A stretch of DNA of 7,774 bases from Caedibacter taeniospiralis (GTDB lineage Bacteria > Pseudomonadota > Gammaproteobacteria > Francisellales > Francisellaceae). The position numbers and the translations under genes are program-made. Below are positions 1 to 7,774 of this stretch, in pieces. Under the pieces are notes generated by a model that saw only the letters and a program-made list of their open reading frames with translations, was not told where the DNA came from and searched no databases. The stretch covers positions 111,827-119,600 of the forward strand of contig NZ_PGGB02000001.1 in NCBI RefSeq assembly GCF_002803295.2. Reading direction: 5' to 3'. The first letter of the stretch is position 1. Each line of letters begins with the position of its first letter.

Positions 1-895
1 TATGAGAAATATTGTTCTTCAAAATATATTTGTGCAAACACTGAGAATCTGATCTTTTAAAATCAGGGATAATGTAGAGTCCAGCTCCACAACTTAAAGT
101 ACTAAAAATTTCCCATACCGAAGCATCAAATGAAATAGATGAAAATTGAAGGATTTTCGATTTGTAGTCGATAACCAGTTTTTCCTGTTCCGTGATGACC
201 AAATTGATTATGCTATGGTTCTCGATACATACTCCTTTAGGCTGTCCTGTGGTCCCAGAAGTATAAATCACATAAGCCAGATGATTTGCTGTAATTTGAG
301 GTAGTAGATTATCAGTGGGCAAGTCCTGATAACAGTTATCATTCAATGCAATCAGTTGAGCATTAGTAAGCATCTGCAGCTTTGATATATAGTGCGACTG
401 CGTCAGTAAACACGCAGCTTTGGTATCCTCAAGGATATATTTGATTCTTTCATCAGGATAACCTGGATCAATCGGCACATAAGCCGCTCCTGATTTGAGA
501 ATCCCTAAAATACCAATAATCATCTCGAGACTCTTATCCAGGCATAAGGCAATGAAGCTATCGGGTTTACTATGAGTAAGTAACGGTTCAGAGTTAAATT
601 GAGCTTCCTGGATTGCCGCCTTCGCGGCAATGACAAGTCTGTCACTCCCGCGAAGGCGGGAGTCTAGTTTAAAGGTGCAATTTAATCCTGATGTCTCACC
701 AAGTGATTGTAAGTACCTTGCTAACTGGTTGGCTTTGGCATTTAATTCAGCATAGGTAAGTTGATCTTTTTCAAAAACAACAGCGACATTATCTGGTGTC
801 TTGGCAACCTGCTCTTCAAATAACTGATGAATCGTTTTGTCTTTGGGATAAGGTTTGTCGGTGTTGTTCCAGTCGCAGAGTAGTTTTTTTTTTGA
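1..895 (-). CDS. Non-ribosomal peptide synthetase, adenylation-domain segment. It is truncated by the left window edge and has no start codon of its own, so it is reachable only by a frame change from the upstream C-domain frame.
   Basis: My own translation of the minus strand (codon starts at 895, 892, ...) is open from 895 to position 2. It reads SKKKLLCDWNNTDKPYPKDKTIHQLFEEQVAKTPDNVAVVFEKDQLTYAELNAKANQLARYLQSLG...FIALCLDKSLEMIIGILGILKSGAAYVPIDPGYPDERIKYILEDTKAACLLTQ...LAYVIYTSGTTGQPKGVCIENHSIINL...QFSSISFDASVWEIFSTLSCGAGLYIIP. The canonical A-domain core motifs are present: A1 LTYAELN (740-760), A2 LKSGAAYVPIDP (464-499), A3 LAYVIYTSGTTGQPKG (233-280) and A4 FDAS (119-130). The typical C-A linker LLxxWNxT..YP..IHQLFEEQ precedes them. 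A TGA at 898-896 closes this frame upstream, and there is no ATG, GTG or TTG near its 5' end. Confidence 0.88.
594..685. repeat. GC-rich palindromic double-hairpin repeat (MITE/REP-like) lying inside the NRPS A-domain coding sequence
   Basis: The outer inverted 8-mers are TTAAATTG (594-601) and CAATTTAA (678-685). Hairpin A is ATTGCCGC-cttc-GCGGCAAT (612-631), a perfect 8-bp stem. Hairpin B is ACTCCCGC-gaag-GCGGGAGT (644-663), also a perfect 8-bp stem. CCGCCTTCGCGG (616-627) is the exact reverse complement of CCGCGAAGGCGG (648-659). The arms CTGGATTGCCGCC (608-620) and GGCGGGAGTCTAG (655-667) match as inverted repeats at 10 of 13 positions. The element is a conspicuous GC island in AT-rich sequence. 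Its outer boundaries are approximate. Confidence 0.7.
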
Positions 896-2136
896 TCAAT
901 AGACATTAACTCATATTCAGATAATTTTTTATTTGTATTTGTTATAACTTCATTGATCAGAAACTTAAAATATTCAATAAAATAACTCGGAATATAATTT
1001 GTGTTATAGGCGATTTCATAAATCATTTTAACTTTGTCATAGACAAGAGATAACTCCACTGCTATGCCGCCATAAAAGAAACGGTTGCTTTCTGATTTAA
1101 CATTAACCAGTTGCATATCTGGAGATACCAGGTGGGTTTCTACAACGGAAGCGTTTGGCATAAAATCGACCTCTAAAGAGGATTTAAGGTGCTCAAATGG
1201 GATGCTTTGATACGGTTTGCTTGATTGATATTGATCTCTTGTGTGATCAAGCAGTTGAGTAAAGGTCATATTTGCTGATAACTTAACCCGCAGCGGAAAC
1301 ATACTGACAAAATAACCGACGATGTTACTAAATTCACTCGGGCGTATGTTTTTTGGATAAGACAACATAATGTCTGTCAGGTGAAAGCATCTATAGACAA
1401 AGGTACTGATTAAGGCATTAAAAAAAATAAACGGCGTTGTTTTGTGTGCCTTTAAAAACCTGCTTAAGGCTTTGGGATCAATATCAATACGTTGGCGTTC
1501 AACTTTAGCCGCAGCATCCTCAGTATATTTAGCCAAATCATTTTGCTGAGCGCCTTGAAGATAGATCTTCCAGTAATCGATGGTTTCCTGCTTTTTTTCA
1601 GCGATGATTTTTTCTTCATACTGTAAATAGTCTGCTAATGGATACGTTTTAAATTGTTGTATTGCTTCTAGACCTTCGTTATAAAGCTTTTCAAAAACCC
1701 TACTGAAAATGTCCGTGGTGAGTCCATCTGTAACAATATGATGCCAGACAAACTGAAAATAATGCGTCTGATCGTCTACGGTGATGAGCATGGCTCGAAA
1801 TAGACAATCTTTTTCCAGATCAAATGGTTTGGCTCTTAGCTTCTCAAGTATTTTAAGAACTTGTTCTTTTGTTGTGTTATTAAGTACTTGCTCAATAAAC
1901 TCACCGTCAAAATCATCCAGGATGATTTGACTTGCATCCCCTTCTGTTTCAACAAGCTGTGTTCTAAAAGCTTCGAAATGATTACCAATCGTTTGATATA
2001 TTAATCTGAATTTTTCTTTATCGAGGTTGCCATGGGCTTGATATGACACTGCAACATTATAGTTATCGCCTTTTGGATTGAGCTGATAGGCATACCATAA
2101 CTCTTGCTGCTGTTTTGTTAATCTAAAGTGCGTCAT
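742..2136 (-). CDS. Non-ribosomal peptide synthetase, N-terminal condensation (C) domain ORF. Downstream of the A10 run at 884-893 the encoded tail is out of frame relative to the A domain.
   Basis: This is the ORF-track ORF 742..2211. C-domain core motifs are present: C1 LTKQQQELWYAYQL, C2 HFEAFRTQL, C3 HHIVTDG (1723-1743), C4-like YPLADYLQYEE and C5-like VGYFVSMFPLRV. The track start at 2211 is TTG and adds 25 hydrophobic residues. The ATG at 2136-2134 sits immediately before the C1 motif and is preceded by GGGGTAAAA, so I prefer it as the start. The last 47 residues (NYSATGTTPTNLIPKT...PMLN, 883-745) are the A-domain linker read in the wrong frame. Confidence 0.88.
   Translation of the reverse strand: MTHFRLTKQQQELWYAYQLNPKGDNYNVAVSYQAHGNLDKEKFRLIYQTIGNHFEAFRTQLVETEGDASQIILDDFDGEFIEQVLNNTTKEQVLKILEKLRAKPFDLEKDCLFRAMLITVDDQTHYFQFVWHHIVTDGLTTDIFSRVFEKLYNEGLEAIQQFKTYPLADYLQYEEKIIAEKKQETIDYWKIYLQGAQQNDLAKYTEDAAAKVERQRIDIDPKALSRFLKAHKTTPFIFFNALISTFVYRCFHLTDIMLSYPKNIRPSEFSNIVGYFVSMFPLRVKLSANMTFTQLLDHTRDQYQSSKPYQSIPFEHLKSSLEVDFMPNASVVETHLVSPDMQLVNVKSESNRFFYGGIAVELSLVYDKVKMIYEIAYNTNYIPSYFIEYFKFLINEVITNTNKKLSEYELMSIDQKKNYSATGTTPTNLIPKTKRFISYLKSRLPRHQIMSLLFLKKINLPMLN
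884..893 (-). repeat. Homopolymer (T10 on the plus strand, A10 on the coding strand) at the C-domain/A-domain frame junction
   Basis: Counted directly: tag-tttttttttt-gatcaat. The C-domain frame reads att gat caa aaa aaa aac. The A-domain frame reads tca aaa aaa aaa cta ctc tgc gac tgg. One extra A (A11), or a -1 ribosomal slip, joins ...SIDQKKK to LLCDWNNTDKPYP.... Confidence 0.95.
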
Positions 2137-2240
2137 TTTTACCCCATAAAATACTATCACTGCTACGCATTCAAGCGCAACGACCCCAAGTTCGGAGAAA
2201 TAGTAAAGCAAAAGAGTCGTTAAACCTAGTAAATAAAGGT

Positions 2241-4133
2241 TTATTGAGAACGCATTACAAAGTCATTTTTTGGATAGTGGTTAGTTCTGACAGCATGAAG
2301 TTGCTGATTGATCACGTGAAAATAAACATCCTGCGTCGCAAGCTTTACTTGTGCAAGCTTAACCGTGATGCTGTCATCAAGTTCAATAGACGCTACCAGG
2401 GTGAGCTTTTTGATCAATGACAAAGCAGGGATGAAGACGGTTACGCGATTATTCTGCTGCTTTTCAATCACGATGGCATTTCCTTGCCATTCTGGGTTCT
2501 GCAGCAGATAGACACATTTCCAGTGGTTGTTACTAAAGCTTTCTGCTTGTCGTGCGGCTTTGATACCTGATTCGCTTTCGCCAATACGTGTTAGAATTTC
2601 CTCTCCTGAGAGTAAGACCTCGTTTTTTAGGAATCTGCGAAGCTGCTGATGCACAACCAGGTCCAGATAACGTCTTAATGGGCTTGTTGCCTGCACATAA
2701 GCCGTTAAACCCATGCCTGCATGTTTATCTGATTGACTCTTATATTGTCCTTTTTGCAGACGTCTTCTTATGCCAAACATCTCCGAGAGTAAGGTTGGGG
2801 AAAGCTCATCCTCCGTTAAATCATGATCGGGCTGAGTTGAGAAGGGTAAAGGGATGTTGTGCTTATCGGCAAAGGTTGCCACGGCAACTCCCGCCATGAG
2901 CATCGCATCGCGCACAAGGTGACGGCTGCGTAAAGTTTCCAGTGCAATAAGTTCAACTTTTTTATCTTTTAATTTGATTTTTACCTCTGGAAATTGCAGC
3001 TCCACGGCGCCCTGTTGTTTGCGATAAGCACTAAACTCATCCGCAAGTCTCGCAAAATAACTAAATGGTTGTTCATTCAGTCTATTTTCAGCTTCCTTGT
3101 AGCTTAAACGTGTCACTTTAATGGTTGATAACGCAATTTCCACGTCTTCTACTTGCCCCTCAATCAACCTAAAACCAATAGAAAGTGCGGGGGAGCTTTC
3201 GTGTAGTCCCAAGGCTAAATCATGGGTTATTTGATGCGGCAGCATGGGAGAAACCCCTTCGGGTAAGTACAAGTTACTCCCTCTAACCCTGGCTTCTTTA
3301 TCCATCTCGCTTTCAGGGGTAACCACGCAGGCGGGATCCGCAACATGTACCCATAGCTTTTGTGTCTGTTCATCAAAACTCAAGGCATCATCAGGATCGT
3401 GACTGTCTTCATCATCAATGGCGAAGCTTGCTAAATGAGTTAAATCAAGTCGCGTTTCTTTGGGCGTTTCAGGCACAGCAAATTGAGGTGCATGAAGGCT
3501 TACTCCCAAACGCTGTGGGTATGGATTTCTAAACTCATCCCAAAATCCTATGTCCAATAACAGCATATGGGCGTTAGGAAGGTTTTCTTCTTTATCTAAG
3601 AATTTAAAAAATCGACAGCTGGAAGACTGACCAAGCGCATAAGACTCAAGCTCTTTGATAAACGGTTCATCCGCTTGTGCATAGGTTTTTTGCCTGACAC
3701 GTTGAATAAAGTCTTCTAAGGCTTGTGCTTTTTGTTGTTTCTCTCGTGCTTGAGCTTCAATGTCTTCTACTGTTTTAGGATCATTCACGCCAATGTTGCC
3801 ATCTTCGGCATAAAAATGCAGCGCTTTTTGTACATGTTGCCATGTGGCATAAGCAGTGACACAGTTATATTCCCCATAAATAAGCTCGCTTAGCTCGTCA
3901 TAATCTGTTTTTGTGCCCTGCAATAAATTCCATGCTTCGAGAAACTCACCCTCACCTAAATTGGATGAAAGCATCTTAAAATTTTTAAAGCCACCTTCAT
4001 GGAGTAGCAACAAGTTTTTCTCTGGCAATTTAACCGTTTTTTCATCTTCTAACTCTATTTCAACTTTCTTATCAACAAAGCCAATCACCCTCGCGGGGCG
4101 ACCTTTAAAAATCACTAAACTATCTACTTGCAT
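2241..4133 (-). CDS. RNase II/R family 3'-5' exoribonuclease (RNB domain protein)
   Basis: This is a 630-aa ORF with an ATG start at 4133-4131. RNB catalytic motifs are intact: motif I AIDDEDSHDPDDALS (IDx5DxDDA), motif II LYLPEGVSPMLP, RDAMLMAGVAVA, and motif IV HAGMGLTAYVQATSPLRRYLDLVVHQQL (TSPxRRYxDLxxH). The N-terminus (LVIFKGRPARV...VEIELEDEKTVKLPEKNLLLLHEG) and a C-terminal beta-rich tail fit nucleic-acid-binding flanking domains. It does not resemble E. coli Rnb at the N-terminus, so I assign no gene symbol. Confidence 0.9.
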   Translation of the reverse strand: MQVDSLVIFKGRPARVIGFVDKKVEIELEDEKTVKLPEKNLLLLHEGGFKNFKMLSSNLGEGEFLEAWNLLQGTKTDYDELSELIYGEYNCVTAYATWQHVQKALHFYAEDGNIGVNDPKTVEDIEAQAREKQQKAQALEDFIQRVRQKTYAQADEPFIKELESYALGQSSSCRFFKFLDKEENLPNAHMLLLDIGFWDEFRNPYPQRLGVSLHAPQFAVPETPKETRLDLTHLASFAIDDEDSHDPDDALSFDEQTQKLWVHVADPACVVTPESEMDKEARVRGSNLYLPEGVSPMLPHQITHDLALGLHESSPALSIGFRLIEGQVEDVEIALSTIKVTRLSYKEAENRLNEQPFSYFARLADEFSAYRKQQGAVELQFPEVKIKLKDKKVELIALETLRSRHLVRDAMLMAGVAVATFADKHNIPLPFSTQPDHDLTEDELSPTLLSEMFGIRRRLQKGQYKSQSDKHAGMGLTAYVQATSPLRRYLDLVVHQQLRRFLKNEVLLSGEEILTRIGESESGIKAARQAESFSNNHWKCVYLLQNPEWQGNAIVIEKQQNNRVTVFIPALSLIKKLTLVASIELDDSITVKLAQVKLATQDVYFHVINQQLHAVRTNHYPKNDFVMRSQ

Positions 4134-4243
4134 TCTTGCCGTTAAAATACTACTTGCTCGTTGTCGCTATGGTACCAAAAAAGCGCATCAACAGGGATGA
4201 TTGTTACCACTTTTTTTCGTACACTCTTGAATCTGTCATTTTC

Positions 4244-6004: not shown

Positions 6005-6087
6005 TCTCGTTCCCACGCGGGAGCGTGGGAAGCAGCTGCCGCCTTCGTAAAAATGGGCGGAAAGTAGCCCTGACCCCGTCACCCCTT
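6005..6087. repeat. GC-rich hairpin-containing intergenic repeat (REP/MITE-like)
   Basis: There is a perfect 9-bp stem with a 4-nt loop, TTCCCACGC-ggga-GCGTGGGAA (6010-6031). A weaker CCGCC...GGCGG pair follows (6039-6043 / 6056-6060), then a C-rich tail (gccctgaccccgtcacccc). It shares the 11-mer TGCCGCCTTCG (6037-6047) with the intragenic element (614-624). It is a GC island in an AT-rich 255-nt spacer. Boundaries are approximate. Confidence 0.55.
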
Positions 6088-6194: not shown

Positions 6195-7774
6195 ATGGCT
6201 AAGAAAATTTATATCGGTTCCTCTAATTTTGAGAAAATCATTACAGGCAATGGCTTATTTGTCGATAAGAGTCTGTTTATTAAAGAAATCATTGAGGATA
6301 CTAGTGATGTGATCCTGATCACGCGCCCCAGACGCTTTGGCAAGACCCTAAACATGTCCATGCTGCATCACTTCTTTGCCGCTAAAATTGGTTTTATTGA
6401 AACCCAGGGCTTGTTTGATCATCTCGCTATTGCCAGGGAAGATAATGGTTTTTACCTTAAGGAGTATCAGGGCAAATATCCCGTGATCTTTGTGAGCTTT
6501 AAAGATATTAAGGCACGTGATTATCAGACGGTACTTGGGCAGCTAACTTATCTTGCTCGCGATGCTTTTAATGTGCATGACTATTTGCTGGAATCACACG
6601 CATTAAGTGTGACGGATAAAAAAATCTTTGAAAGCTATCTGGAGATGGAAACTTTCAACACCTACAAAATCGATGTTAGTTTACGGTTTTTAAGCCAATT
6701 GTTGTATAAACACCACCGCCAAAAAGTAGTCATTTTAATCGACGAATATGACACCCCTTTAAATGCTGCTTATGTTGAGAACTATATTGAAGACTTAACC
6801 CCTTTGATGCGTAATCTAATGAGCAATACCTTTAAGGACAATGACGCACTTCACAAAGGTGTTATGACAGGCATTTTACGCGTCTCCAAAGACAGTATGC
6901 TCTCAGGCTTAAATAACCTTGAAGTCTATACAATTTTGGATAAAGAATATCGCGAATATTTTGGCTTTAGCAACAAAGAGCTTGATGAATTATATCAGGA
7001 TCAGGGTTTGATTGCGGATAGAGAAAATGCCAAAAAATGGTATAACGGTTATAACTTTGCAGGACTTCAGATTTACAACCCCTGGTCGATTTTAAATTGT
7101 CTGCATAAAGATGGAAAATTTGATGACTATTGGGTGCATACTTCCAATAACAAAATGATTGAAACCCTGCTGCTGAAATTCCGTGAAGATGTGCATCCTG
7201 CGGTGACGCAATTGATGGAATATAAGACGGCAGAAGTCATTATCGATCGCCATGTGACCTATGACACGCTGGATATTCAATCGAGCAGTTTATGGAGTTT
7301 GTTGCTGTTTGCAGGCTATCTCACTACCGAAAGCTGTGAAGCAACCGGTAAACTCCTGTATGGTTGCCAGGTTAAGCTCCCAAATATCGAAATTGTTCAT
7401 TTACTTAATTATTACTTCGATATGTGGTTTAGCACACGTTTAGGCGTACAGTATCAATCGTTTTTAAATAATCTGGTTGAAGGCAAGGTGGAGAAGTTCA
7501 GTGAGCAATTAAATACTTATCTCACTGAAGCCTTAAGTGTCAGAGACACAGGCTATACCGCCGAGAAGTTTTATCATGGATTGGTGTTGGGTTTAATCGC
7601 GTCATTAAGAGCGACTCATCTTATCCACTCCAATCGTGAATCAGGGGATGGTTATCCTGATGTGCTGATTTATCCTTTGGCAAATAATCAAAAGCACGAT
7701 TTAGGCATTGTGATGGAATTTAAGCATGCCAGGGAAGATGGCAGCGAAAATCAGGAAATACTGGCAGAGAAAGC
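6195..7774 (+). CDS. AAA-ATPase-like domain protein with a C-terminal PD-(D/E)XK nuclease-like domain (uncharacterised family; 3' end beyond the window)
   Basis: My own translation from the ATG at 6195 is open to the window end (526 codons). It reads MAKKIYIGSSNFEKIITGNGLFVDKSLFIKEIIEDTSDVILITRPRRFGKTLNMSMLHHFF...KVVILIDEYDTPLN...GVMTGILRVSKDSMLSGLNNLEVYTILDKEYREYFGFSNKELDELY...KKWYNGYNF...IYNPWSILNCL...DYWVHTSNN...EKFYHGLVLGLIASL...SNRESGDGYPDVLIYPL...DLGIVMEFKHA. It has a Walker-A-like RPRRFGKT and a Walker-B-like ILIDEYD. The N-terminal signature (G..NF..I......VDKS) matches my memory of the 'predicted AAA-ATPase' family, and the tail E-S-G-x-G-x-PD...hhhEFK matches PDDEXK_9. I saw no strong Shine-Dalgarno sequence. 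Confidence 0.85.
   Translation, partial: MAKKIYIGSSNFEKIITGNGLFVDKSLFIKEIIEDTSDVILITRPRRFGKTLNMSMLHHFFAAKIGFIETQGLFDHLAIAREDNGFYLKEYQGKYPVIFVSFKDIKARDYQTVLGQLTYLARDAFNVHDYLLESHALSVTDKKIFESYLEMETFNTYKIDVSLRFLSQLLYKHHRQKVVILIDEYDTPLNAAYVENYIEDLTPLMRNLMSNTFKDNDALHKGVMTGILRVSKDSMLSGLNNLEVYTILDKEYREYFGFSNKELDELYQDQGLIADRENAKKWYNGYNFAGLQIYNPWSILNCLHKDGKFDDYWVHTSNNKMIETLLLKFREDVHPAVTQLMEYKTAEVIIDRHVTYDTLDIQSSSLWSLLLFAGYLTTESCEATGKLLYGCQVKLPNIEIVHLLNYYFDMWFSTRLGVQYQSFLNNLVEGKVEKFSEQLNTYLTEALSVRDTGYTAEKFYHGLVLGLIASLRATHLIHSNRESGDGYPDVLIYPLANNQKHDLGIVMEFKHAREDGSENQEILAEK

Follow-up and report, generated by a model that had tools for sequence, protein, structure and literature searches.

How the adenylation domain of a bacterial peptide synthetase came to carry some 40 residues that its aligned homologues lack, and whether these residues are a native linker or the translation of an inserted DNA repeat, is the question raised by the stretch of Caedibacter taeniospiralis DNA analysed here (contig NZ_PGGB02000001.1, positions 111,827 to 119,600), the whole 7,774 nt of which are referred to below as the window. 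The start of a non-ribosomal peptide synthetase (NRPS) gene is encoded on the minus strand of the window, and between motifs A1 and A2 of its first adenylation (A) domain a segment with marked inverted repeats is read in frame. A first-pass annotation, made from the letters alone, had proposed that this segment is an inserted palindromic repeat. The present analysis indicates that it is very probably a dimer of CGTC-1 repetitive extragenic palindromic (REP) units, lying in a 104-nt palindrome, which was inserted in the A1-A2 loop and has been tolerated in the NRPS. The host, C. taeniospiralis, forms R-bodies and lives as an obligate endosymbiont in Paramecium tetraurelia; its genome measures 1.3 Mb, at a GC content of 41.3-41.5% (PMC5773718, PMC7297999), and the searched portions of these two genome papers make no mention of an NRPS or of REPs. 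The GC content of the window is 40.7%.

The NRPS begins with a condensation (C) domain at 742-2136 on the minus strand (Pfam Condensation PF00668, 5e-56), in which the HHxxxDG motif is found as WHHIVTDG. The A-domain fragment, 298 amino acids in length, lies at 2-895 on the minus strand in a frame that differs from that of the C domain, and runs off the left end of the window (Pfam AMP-binding PF00501, 1.1e-51). Motifs A1 to A4 of this fragment are intact, as are all catalytic motifs within the window. The closest homologue of the A domain is an NRPS fragment of Fastidiosibacter lacustris (P0002), with 65% identity. The PF00501 match is broken into two separate stretches, and the Pfam and PDB alignments alike pass over residues 67-109. 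Using phmmer, query residues 10-66 and 110-294 were aligned to residues 197-251 and 253-435 of the LgrA structure, so that a single LgrA residue faces 43 residues here.

The distance from A59, at the end of NQLA, to S122, in KSLEM, is 62 residues in the Caedibacter gene, compared to 20 (n=48), 21 (n=6), 26 (n=2) or 27 (n=9) residues in 65 homologues. When G66-L106 was deleted in silico, RYLQSL was joined directly to THSKPDSFIALCLDK, a stretch of 21 residues which mirrors that of the best full-coverage homologue, P0001 (RYLQSQTAIKPDTLIALCLDR). Since removal of G66-L106 restores this P0001-like stretch, the insert was placed at 578-700 on the minus strand, a total of 123 nt or 41 codons (GETSGLNCTFKLDSRLRGSDRLVIAAKAAIQEAQFNSEPLL). 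The peptide that it encodes can be parsed as GETSGLNCTFK-LDSRLRGSD-RL-VIAAKAAIQ-EAQFNSEPLL. These alignments establish both the existence of the insertion and its limits. The earlier estimate of about 40 extra residues centred on 594-685 was therefore sound as to the extra length, and its limits are now best put at 578-700. Only one of the six possible reading frames through the insert is free of stops, and this is the frame in use; the translation given for it previously, ...ARYLQSLGETSGLNCTFKLDSRLRGSDRLVIAAKAAIQEAQFNSEPLLTHSKPDSFIALCLDKSLEM..., was exact.

It could be argued that the segment is native, a linker or loop that is palindromic by coincidence, as the A1-A2 turn does vary naturally among homologues, at 20, 21, 26 or 27 residues. 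None of the 65 homologues exceeds 27 residues, however, and neither these homologues nor any of the solved A-domain structures contain the insert. An exhaustive search of 1.84 billion representative proteins with the 43-residue insert revealed no segment like it, and a word-indexed protein search with the insert peptide gave no candidate. Two matches from the 43-residue search were rejected as spurious: P0241 is a multi-repeat mucin-like protein, and P0242 is a 124-residue junk open reading frame composed of REP translations. The sequence comparisons support the reading of the first-pass annotation, in which a repeated palindromic DNA element was inserted in this lineage and the segment is no native linker. 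Together with the folding results and the match to a known repeat family described below, which effectively refutes a native linker, they leave practically no probability to a coincidental palindrome.

Folding of the region as RNA and as DNA showed that the hairpin-forming element as a whole is an imperfect palindrome of 104 nt at 588-691. Its left outer arm, TCAGAGTTAAATTG (588-601), pairs with its right outer arm, CAATTTAATCCTGA (678-691), at 12 of 14 positions. The palindrome had been placed at 594-685, which proved real but too short, as the outer arms extend to 14 nt. The internal features that had been described were all present: two perfect 8-bp hairpins at 612-619/624-631 (loop CTTC) and 644-651/656-663 (loop GAAG), mutually complementary 12-nt arms (CCGCCTTCGCGG and CCGCGAAGGCGG), and 8-bp outer inverted repeats (TTAAATTG at 594-601 and CAATTTAA at 678-685). 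Its description as GC-rich holds for the core alone, since 594-685 has 49% GC versus 41% for the window and the GC-richness is confined to the core. A 129-nt segment containing the element had an RNA minimum free energy of -50.3 kcal/mol, versus -27.2 +/- 3.7 kcal/mol in dinucleotide shuffles (z -6.2, 0/200), and when the same segment was folded as DNA the z score was -5.4. The palindromy exceeds chance. A search of Rfam gave nothing above the gathering score, the best match being FtrB (26.8 bits versus 66, E 0.45). An intrinsic terminator was considered and rejected, with neither a T-run nor a terminator call at the element.

Two CGTC-1 REP units, arranged head to head as a dimer, make up the core of the palindrome at 609-666. 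Units were located with a pattern consisting of a head, an 8-bp stem, a 4-nt loop and a tail. The first, at 609-635 on the minus strand, reads TGTC-ATTGCCGC-GAAG-GCGGCAAT-CCA and codes for V-I-A-A-K-A-A-I-Q. The second, at 640-666 on the plus strand, reads TGTC-ACTCCCGC-GAAG-GCGGGAGT-CTA, and its complement codes for L-D-S-R-L-R-G-S-D. The two heads are separated by a 4-nt spacer, AGTC, at 636-639. Both units begin with TGTC and have stems paired at 8 of 8 positions, a GAAG loop, and tails of CCA and CTA respectively; the stem starts with AT in the unit at 609-635 and with AC in that at 640-666. CGTC-1 REPs have been defined by a CGTC or TGTC head, an 8-bp stem, a 4-nt loop and a CCA tail, with a stem that "almost invariably" begins with complementary A and T at its first and second positions (Di Nocera, De Gregorio & Rocco 2013, BMC Genomics 14:522; PMC3733652). 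Among CGTC units head-to-head dimers prevail, no dedicated transposase has been reported, and host genomes contain from tens to thousands of CGTC-1 units (PMC3733652). The family corresponds to dRS3 in Neisseria and to RPE-6, a Rickettsia palindromic element (RPE), in Rickettsia conorii, and is intragenic in several species (PMC3733652). The insert translation, LDSRLRGSD..VIAAKAAIQ, matches the peptides published for intragenic copies, namely DSRLRGND and VIPAKAGI in R. conorii and GSRLRGND in C. burnetii (PMC3733652 supplement).

In order to place the element within this family, GTDB representative genomes were scanned with the query CCGCCTTCGCGG-N10-40-CCGCGAAGGCGG, resulting in at least 120 loci, many of which share the consensus CTGGATTCCCGCCTTCGCGGGAATGAC[AG]...[CT]GTCATTCCCGCGAAGGCGGGAATCCAG. 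Among the matches listed, there were at least 90 perfect units in at least 48 loci from Proteobacteria, Chloroflexi and other phyla; the counts that follow apply to the same matches. The head was CGTC in at least 58 units and TGTC in at least 32, the loop was GAAG, and the tail was CCA in at least 83 and CTA in at least 3. The most frequent stem was ATTCCCGC (at least 57 units), with ATCCCCGC, ATGCCCGC, GTTCCCGC, ACTCCCGC and others also found. Stems starting with AC occurred in at least 8 of the at least 90 units (ACTCCCGC in at least 5 and ACCCCCGC in at least 3), and ACTCCCGC recurs in units of Desulfobulbales, Caldilineae and other loci. One of the two window units matches REP units of unrelated phyla at 26 of 27 nt. 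To judge from its sequence, the element is a member of the CGTC-1 family. It shares with the published elements the head, 8-bp stem, 4-nt loop, CCA-type tail and head-to-head pairing, as well as in-frame intragenic copies coding for DSRLRGND- or VIPAKAGI-type peptides and the absence of an associated transposase gene. It differs from them in several respects. The spacer is 4 nt, whereas the spacers of 32 other dimers among the matches listed are 5-24 nt; one unit has the stem ATTGCCGC/GCGGCAAT, which is absent from the 90 perfect units elsewhere among these matches; the other unit starts with AC and not AT, and ends with CTA and not CCA; and the dimer is nested in a further pair of palindromic arms of 23-25 nt. 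Relative to the family consensus, the stem of the unit at 609-635 contains a compensatory pair of changes, from ATTCCCGC/GCGGGAAT to ATTGCCGC/GCGGCAAT. This amounts to a C-G to G-C swap, by which VIPAKAGIQ becomes VIAAKAAIQ in the frame used, with Pro and Gly both replaced by Ala.

The scan also returned repeats of other kinds. Among the matches listed, two other abundant repeat families share the CCGC-CTTC/GAAG-GCGG top of the hairpin and have different flanks, for example GCAAAGTCCGCCTTCGCGGACT... and CTGAACCCCCGTGCTTT...CCCCGCCTTCGCGGGC...; one is found in Chamaesiphon and Nostoc (L002, L007, L010, L015, L032, L035 and others) and the other in Armatimonadota (L009, L018, L021, L025 and others). 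In several metagenome-assembled genomes (MAGs) of Deltaproteobacteria type (loci L006, L022, L023, L043, L050, L072, L102 and L120), a CGTC-1 dimer lies within conserved non-palindromic flanks (AATCATATTTTGCGA...CTGGATTC... / ...GAATCCAG...CAATAAGTCC), which points to a composite element, larger than the dimer and about 110 nt long, that these genomes have in common.

The first-pass annotation had likened the segment to Rickettsia palindromic elements, and because the CGTC-1 family includes RPE-6, this analogy is literally correct. As in Rickettsia, the bacterium is obligately intracellular, and a palindromic repeat is found in frame within a gene for a known protein, where it encodes a peptide absent from homologues, at a site that the fold would probably accommodate. 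Unlike in Rickettsia, the host is a gammaproteobacterium (Fastidiosibacteraceae), and so far a single copy has come to light. RPE-1, the classic element, is longer and of a different kind. Similarly, REPINs, reportedly described by Bertels and Rainey in 2011, are REP doublets forming hairpins; as in the Caedibacter element, two inverted REPs form one long hairpin that is presumed to be the mobile unit, but REPINs consist of GTAG-type REPs mobilised by RAYT transposases, none of which is evident here. Neisseria dRS3 (ATTCCC-N8-GGGAAT) forms intergenic arrays and serves as an integration target for prophages or insertion sequences. This integration-target role belongs to the Neisseria repeat. 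The dRS3 repeat and the Caedibacter element have the same stem-loop core, in keeping with the equivalence of dRS3 to CGTC-1 stated in PMC3733652.

It had also been suggested that such an insertion was not described within an NRPS. This holds for the exact position and family, but not in general: a GTAG-1 REP dimer of 37 codons is listed in frame in Psyr_1958, a P. syringae NRPS annotated "amino acid adenylation" (PMC3733652, Additional file 3), so that a REP dimer in an NRPS is not unprecedented. Psyr_1958 resembles the Caedibacter gene in that a REP dimer is in frame inside an NRPS, and differs in that its repeat belongs to the GTAG superfamily, which is associated with RAYT. The Coxiella elements QMITE1 and QMITE2 are 150-400 bp in length, and QMITE2 carries a GTAG REP (Wachter et al. 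2018, PMC5896051). Compared by description only, they are also elements resembling miniature inverted-repeat transposable elements (MITEs) in an intracellular gammaproteobacterium, and can overlap open reading frames. Set against MITEs generally, the outer arms of the Caedibacter element match at 12 of 14 positions and its candidate target duplication at 5 of 6 only.

A metagenome collection was then scanned with a pattern made up of the outer arm and both REP cores. The only match was the orthologous locus on contig L128 (JACCDZ010198653.1, 4,788 nt), which encodes (C)-A-PCP-R, where PCP and R denote the peptidyl carrier protein and reductase domains, and contains ...RYLQSLSETSGLNCTFKLDSRLRGSDRLVIAAKAAIQEAQFNSEPLLTHSKPD... 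with the same insert. As an independent metagenome contig carries it, the insert is no assembly artefact. The NRPS proteins of the window and L128 are 86% identical. Their synonymous divergence (dS) amounts to 0.39 overall, and to 0.56 when the region of near identity described below is left out; the ratio of nonsynonymous to synonymous divergence (dN/dS) is 0.17-0.19 over 297 codons, from which it follows that purifying selection has acted on the gene during most of their divergence. The insert is thus present in two diverged lineages in a host gene under long-term purifying selection. Window and contig agree at 100% of positions in the 104-nt palindrome, which lies in an island of near identity at 534-751 (L128 4386-4603), with 2 mismatches in 218 nt versus 11.2% divergence outside. 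The island reaches 44-51 nt past the insert on both sides, none of the 92 native coding bases within it is changed (P = 1.8e-5), and its dS is 0.042.

The perfect conservation of the palindrome in a gene with a flanking dS of 0.56 raises the possibility that the hairpin is an exapted nucleic-acid element, kept as an mRNA stabiliser, a ribosome or RNA-polymerase pause, or, as DNA, a site of integration or recombination comparable to Neisseria dRS3. The two stems are perfect, one of them with the compensatory C-G to G-C swap relative to the consensus, and at -50 kcal/mol the structure is very stable. However, the island extends 44-51 nt into ordinary coding sequence, where the hairpin would not protect synonymous sites; this flanking identity is explained by a recombination tract and not by constraint on the hairpin. 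The element also matches no Rfam family and is followed by no terminator-like T-run, and CGTC REPs are intragenic in many unrelated genes, which in the view of the authors who described them argues against functional constraint (PMC3733652). Retention for such a role is accordingly quite improbable. The simplest reading of the island, taken from the two sequences, would be that a short tract with the insert was transferred recently by recombination or gene conversion.

The orthologue also contains two further in-frame palindromic inserts, both at sites that are empty in the window. The first, 30 nt in length, is located in the C-A linker (L128 4707-4736; empty site at window ~855/856), adds TPDHKVLWSG, and is made up of a 2-nt loop closed by a perfect 13-bp stem (ACCTGACCACAAA-AC-TTTGTGGTCAGGT). 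The second, of 90 nt, lies inside the A domain (L128 ~4111-4200; empty site at window ~338-348) and adds 30 residues. It is flanked by an 11-nt direct repeat, the target duplication GTTATTCACTG, and its outer arms, of 12 bp, enclose an inner hairpin that bears GTAG (CTACCCCG...CGGGGTAG); this insert may be a GTAG-type REP or a MITE. All three inserts (123, 30 and 90 nt) are multiples of three and stop-free, which fits a selection filter acting on frequent insertions of small palindromes. A more elaborate reading, which we consider unlikely, is that the shared insert is a young allele spread between diverged Caedibacter-like lineages by short-patch recombination and reshaped under joint DNA- and protein-level pressure, with selfish palindromes building new surface segments in a catalytic domain. 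The joint pressure is suggested because the compensatory stem swap also removes a Pro and a Gly from a stretch modelled as a helix, and the building of surface segments because the L128 orthologue has its two further in-frame palindromes.

The NRPS could instead be a pseudogene in a reductive endosymbiont genome, in which case the insert would be one lesion of several and its in-frame state a one-in-six accident. The C- and A-domain frames part at an A10 homopolymer at 884-893 (minus strand), where A11 would read ...SIDQKKKLLCDWNNT; at the same position L128 has A8 and is in frame (SVDQKKLLCDW). In L128, an in-frame TGA is found at 2117-2119 (minus strand) in the terminal reductase domain (NAD_binding_4), just before SPYNKTK (YxxxK), and the frame continues after it. 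No identical or close NRPS protein was found in a collection of 5.8 billion proteins, though the neighbouring RNase II-family protein is there at 100%, which would fit a gene that is unannotated or marked as a pseudogene. With one of six frames open, an in-frame insert would arise in 17% of cases by chance alone. Against decay stand the dN/dS of 0.17-0.19 at a dS of 0.39-0.56, the intact catalytic motifs in the window, and the three independent inserts, each a multiple of three and stop-free. The lesions also differ between the two lineages, and are therefore recent or sequencing errors. Transcriptional slippage can rescue poly(A) frameshifts in endosymbionts. The lesions may be recent independent pseudogenising changes, sequencing errors or, for the A-run, slippage-rescued sites. 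That the gene is a pseudogene is possible but doubtful. Neither lesion affects the identity of the element; both bear on the present-day activity of the predicted enzyme.

A structural model of the A domain was obtained with AlphaFold2 from a 66-sequence alignment, with a mean predicted local distance difference test score (pLDDT) of 89 and a predicted template modelling score (pTM) of 0.85. The core scored 95-98, while residues ~66-110, between a helix at 48-68 and a strand at 114-117, scored 48-69. Within the insert, a low-confidence helix was predicted at 85-100, covering the VIAAKAAIQ stretch. Foldseek comparisons of the model with the A domains of TycA, PheA, LgrA and Txo gave TMq values of 0.77-0.79, with a root-mean-square deviation of 1.1-1.5 A in the best cases. 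In the model, the A-domain core is intact and the insert leaves it as a segment of low confidence, which would fit a surface excursion at a naturally length-variable site. The earlier suggestion of a tolerated surface loop agrees with this prediction and with the natural variation in length.

In the explanation favoured here, that of a tolerated CGTC-1 dimer, a small non-autonomous palindromic repeat would, within the Caedibacter lineage, have entered the first A domain of an NRPS of the C-A-... type at its A1-A2 loop. This repeat would be a head-to-head CGTC-1 REP dimer nested in the longer 104-nt palindrome, and the 123-nt insert would have landed in its single stop-free frame; 123 nt in the sole stop-free frame adds 41 residues and leaves the reading frame unbroken. 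The site would be a naturally length-variable surface turn from the A1 helix to the strand leading into A2. The extra peptide would jut from an otherwise intact A-domain core, and on the model it has most likely been tolerated, not selected. Arrival was presumably by a transposition-like insertion, whichever transposase served it, and the allele would later have been exchanged between lineages through short-patch homologous recombination, which could account for the island of identity. The 41 residues are probably functionally neutral.

Several observations weigh against this explanation. Neither a further CGTC-1 unit nor a second 104-nt composite turned up in the window, on L128 or across ~118 kb of DNA from Cysteiniphilum, Fangia, Fastidiosibacter and related MAGs, and the element may have arrived together with a horizontally acquired NRPS. 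The candidate target duplication is short and imperfect: TTACTT (sense) at 578-583 on the minus strand, at the 3' end of the insert, and TCACTT (sense) at 701-706 on the minus strand, immediately 5' of it, are alike at 5 of 6 positions, a weak resemblance that could be due to chance. No close orthologue with an empty site for the 123-nt insert was found. Beside the RNase II gene, Cysteiniphilum, TARA MAGs, Fangia and Fastidiosibacter are without an NRPS, and P0002 is silent on the insertion site because the Fastidiosibacter contig begins 15-18 nt downstream of it. In the model, the insert is located near the N-terminal face of the A domain, where a contact with the C-A interface would be conceivable and the insert might not be neutral. 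Each lineage also has one disabling lesion, the A10 frameshift in the window and the TGA in L128, and the NRPS may now be decaying, which would make its present-day tolerance of the insert moot.

The RNase II-family protein adjoining the NRPS is 100% identical to a C. taeniospiralis protein. In the region compared, 742-4133, the NRPS lies directly downstream of this RNase II-family gene only in Caedibacter; in the relatives compared (L122-L125 and L129-L132), hrpA, gyrA or other genes are found in that position instead. The NRPS is therefore a lineage-specific acquisition. No transposase gene is found within the 7.8-kb window, and a plasmid collection gave zero matches to the window or to the palindromic element. 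Elsewhere in the window, an AAA-ATPase open reading frame was predicted at 6198-7774 on the plus strand (PF09820, 1.4e-39), with a C-terminal PD-(D/E)XK nuclease domain (PF08011), running off the right end. The intergenic region between an EamA gene and this AAA-ATPase-like gene contains a second REP-like region at 6008-6075, with a perfect hairpin (TTCCCACGC-GGGA-GCGTGGGAA) followed by GCCGCCTTCG...GGGCGG and then GTAG. The sequence GCCGCCTTCG is common to the CGTC unit, and the overall fold of the region is not significant (z -1.8).

In-frame REP and RPE insertions, one of them in an NRPS, are known already, and the family of the element has been described; current understanding is not overturned. 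New here are the lineage of the host, the precise location within the A domain, and what the comparison brings out, a shared insert in an island of identity together with two lineage-specific in-frame palindromes with empty sites. For annotation, the insertion accounts for a split AMP-binding match and for junk-like peptides (LDSRLRG-D and VI-AKA-IQ) inside a real enzyme. It adds a precisely mapped site within an NRPS A domain, the A1-A2 turn, and to judge from sequence and model this turn may be of use in NRPS engineering as a natural position that accepts ~41 foreign residues. On a small scale, the comparison with L128 serves as a natural experiment on the gain and loss of such inserts and perhaps on their spread through recombination. 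The phenomenon known from RPEs, in which selfish palindromes are translated within a working protein, is hereby extended to the Fastidiosibacteraceae and to an obligate endosymbiont of Paramecium.

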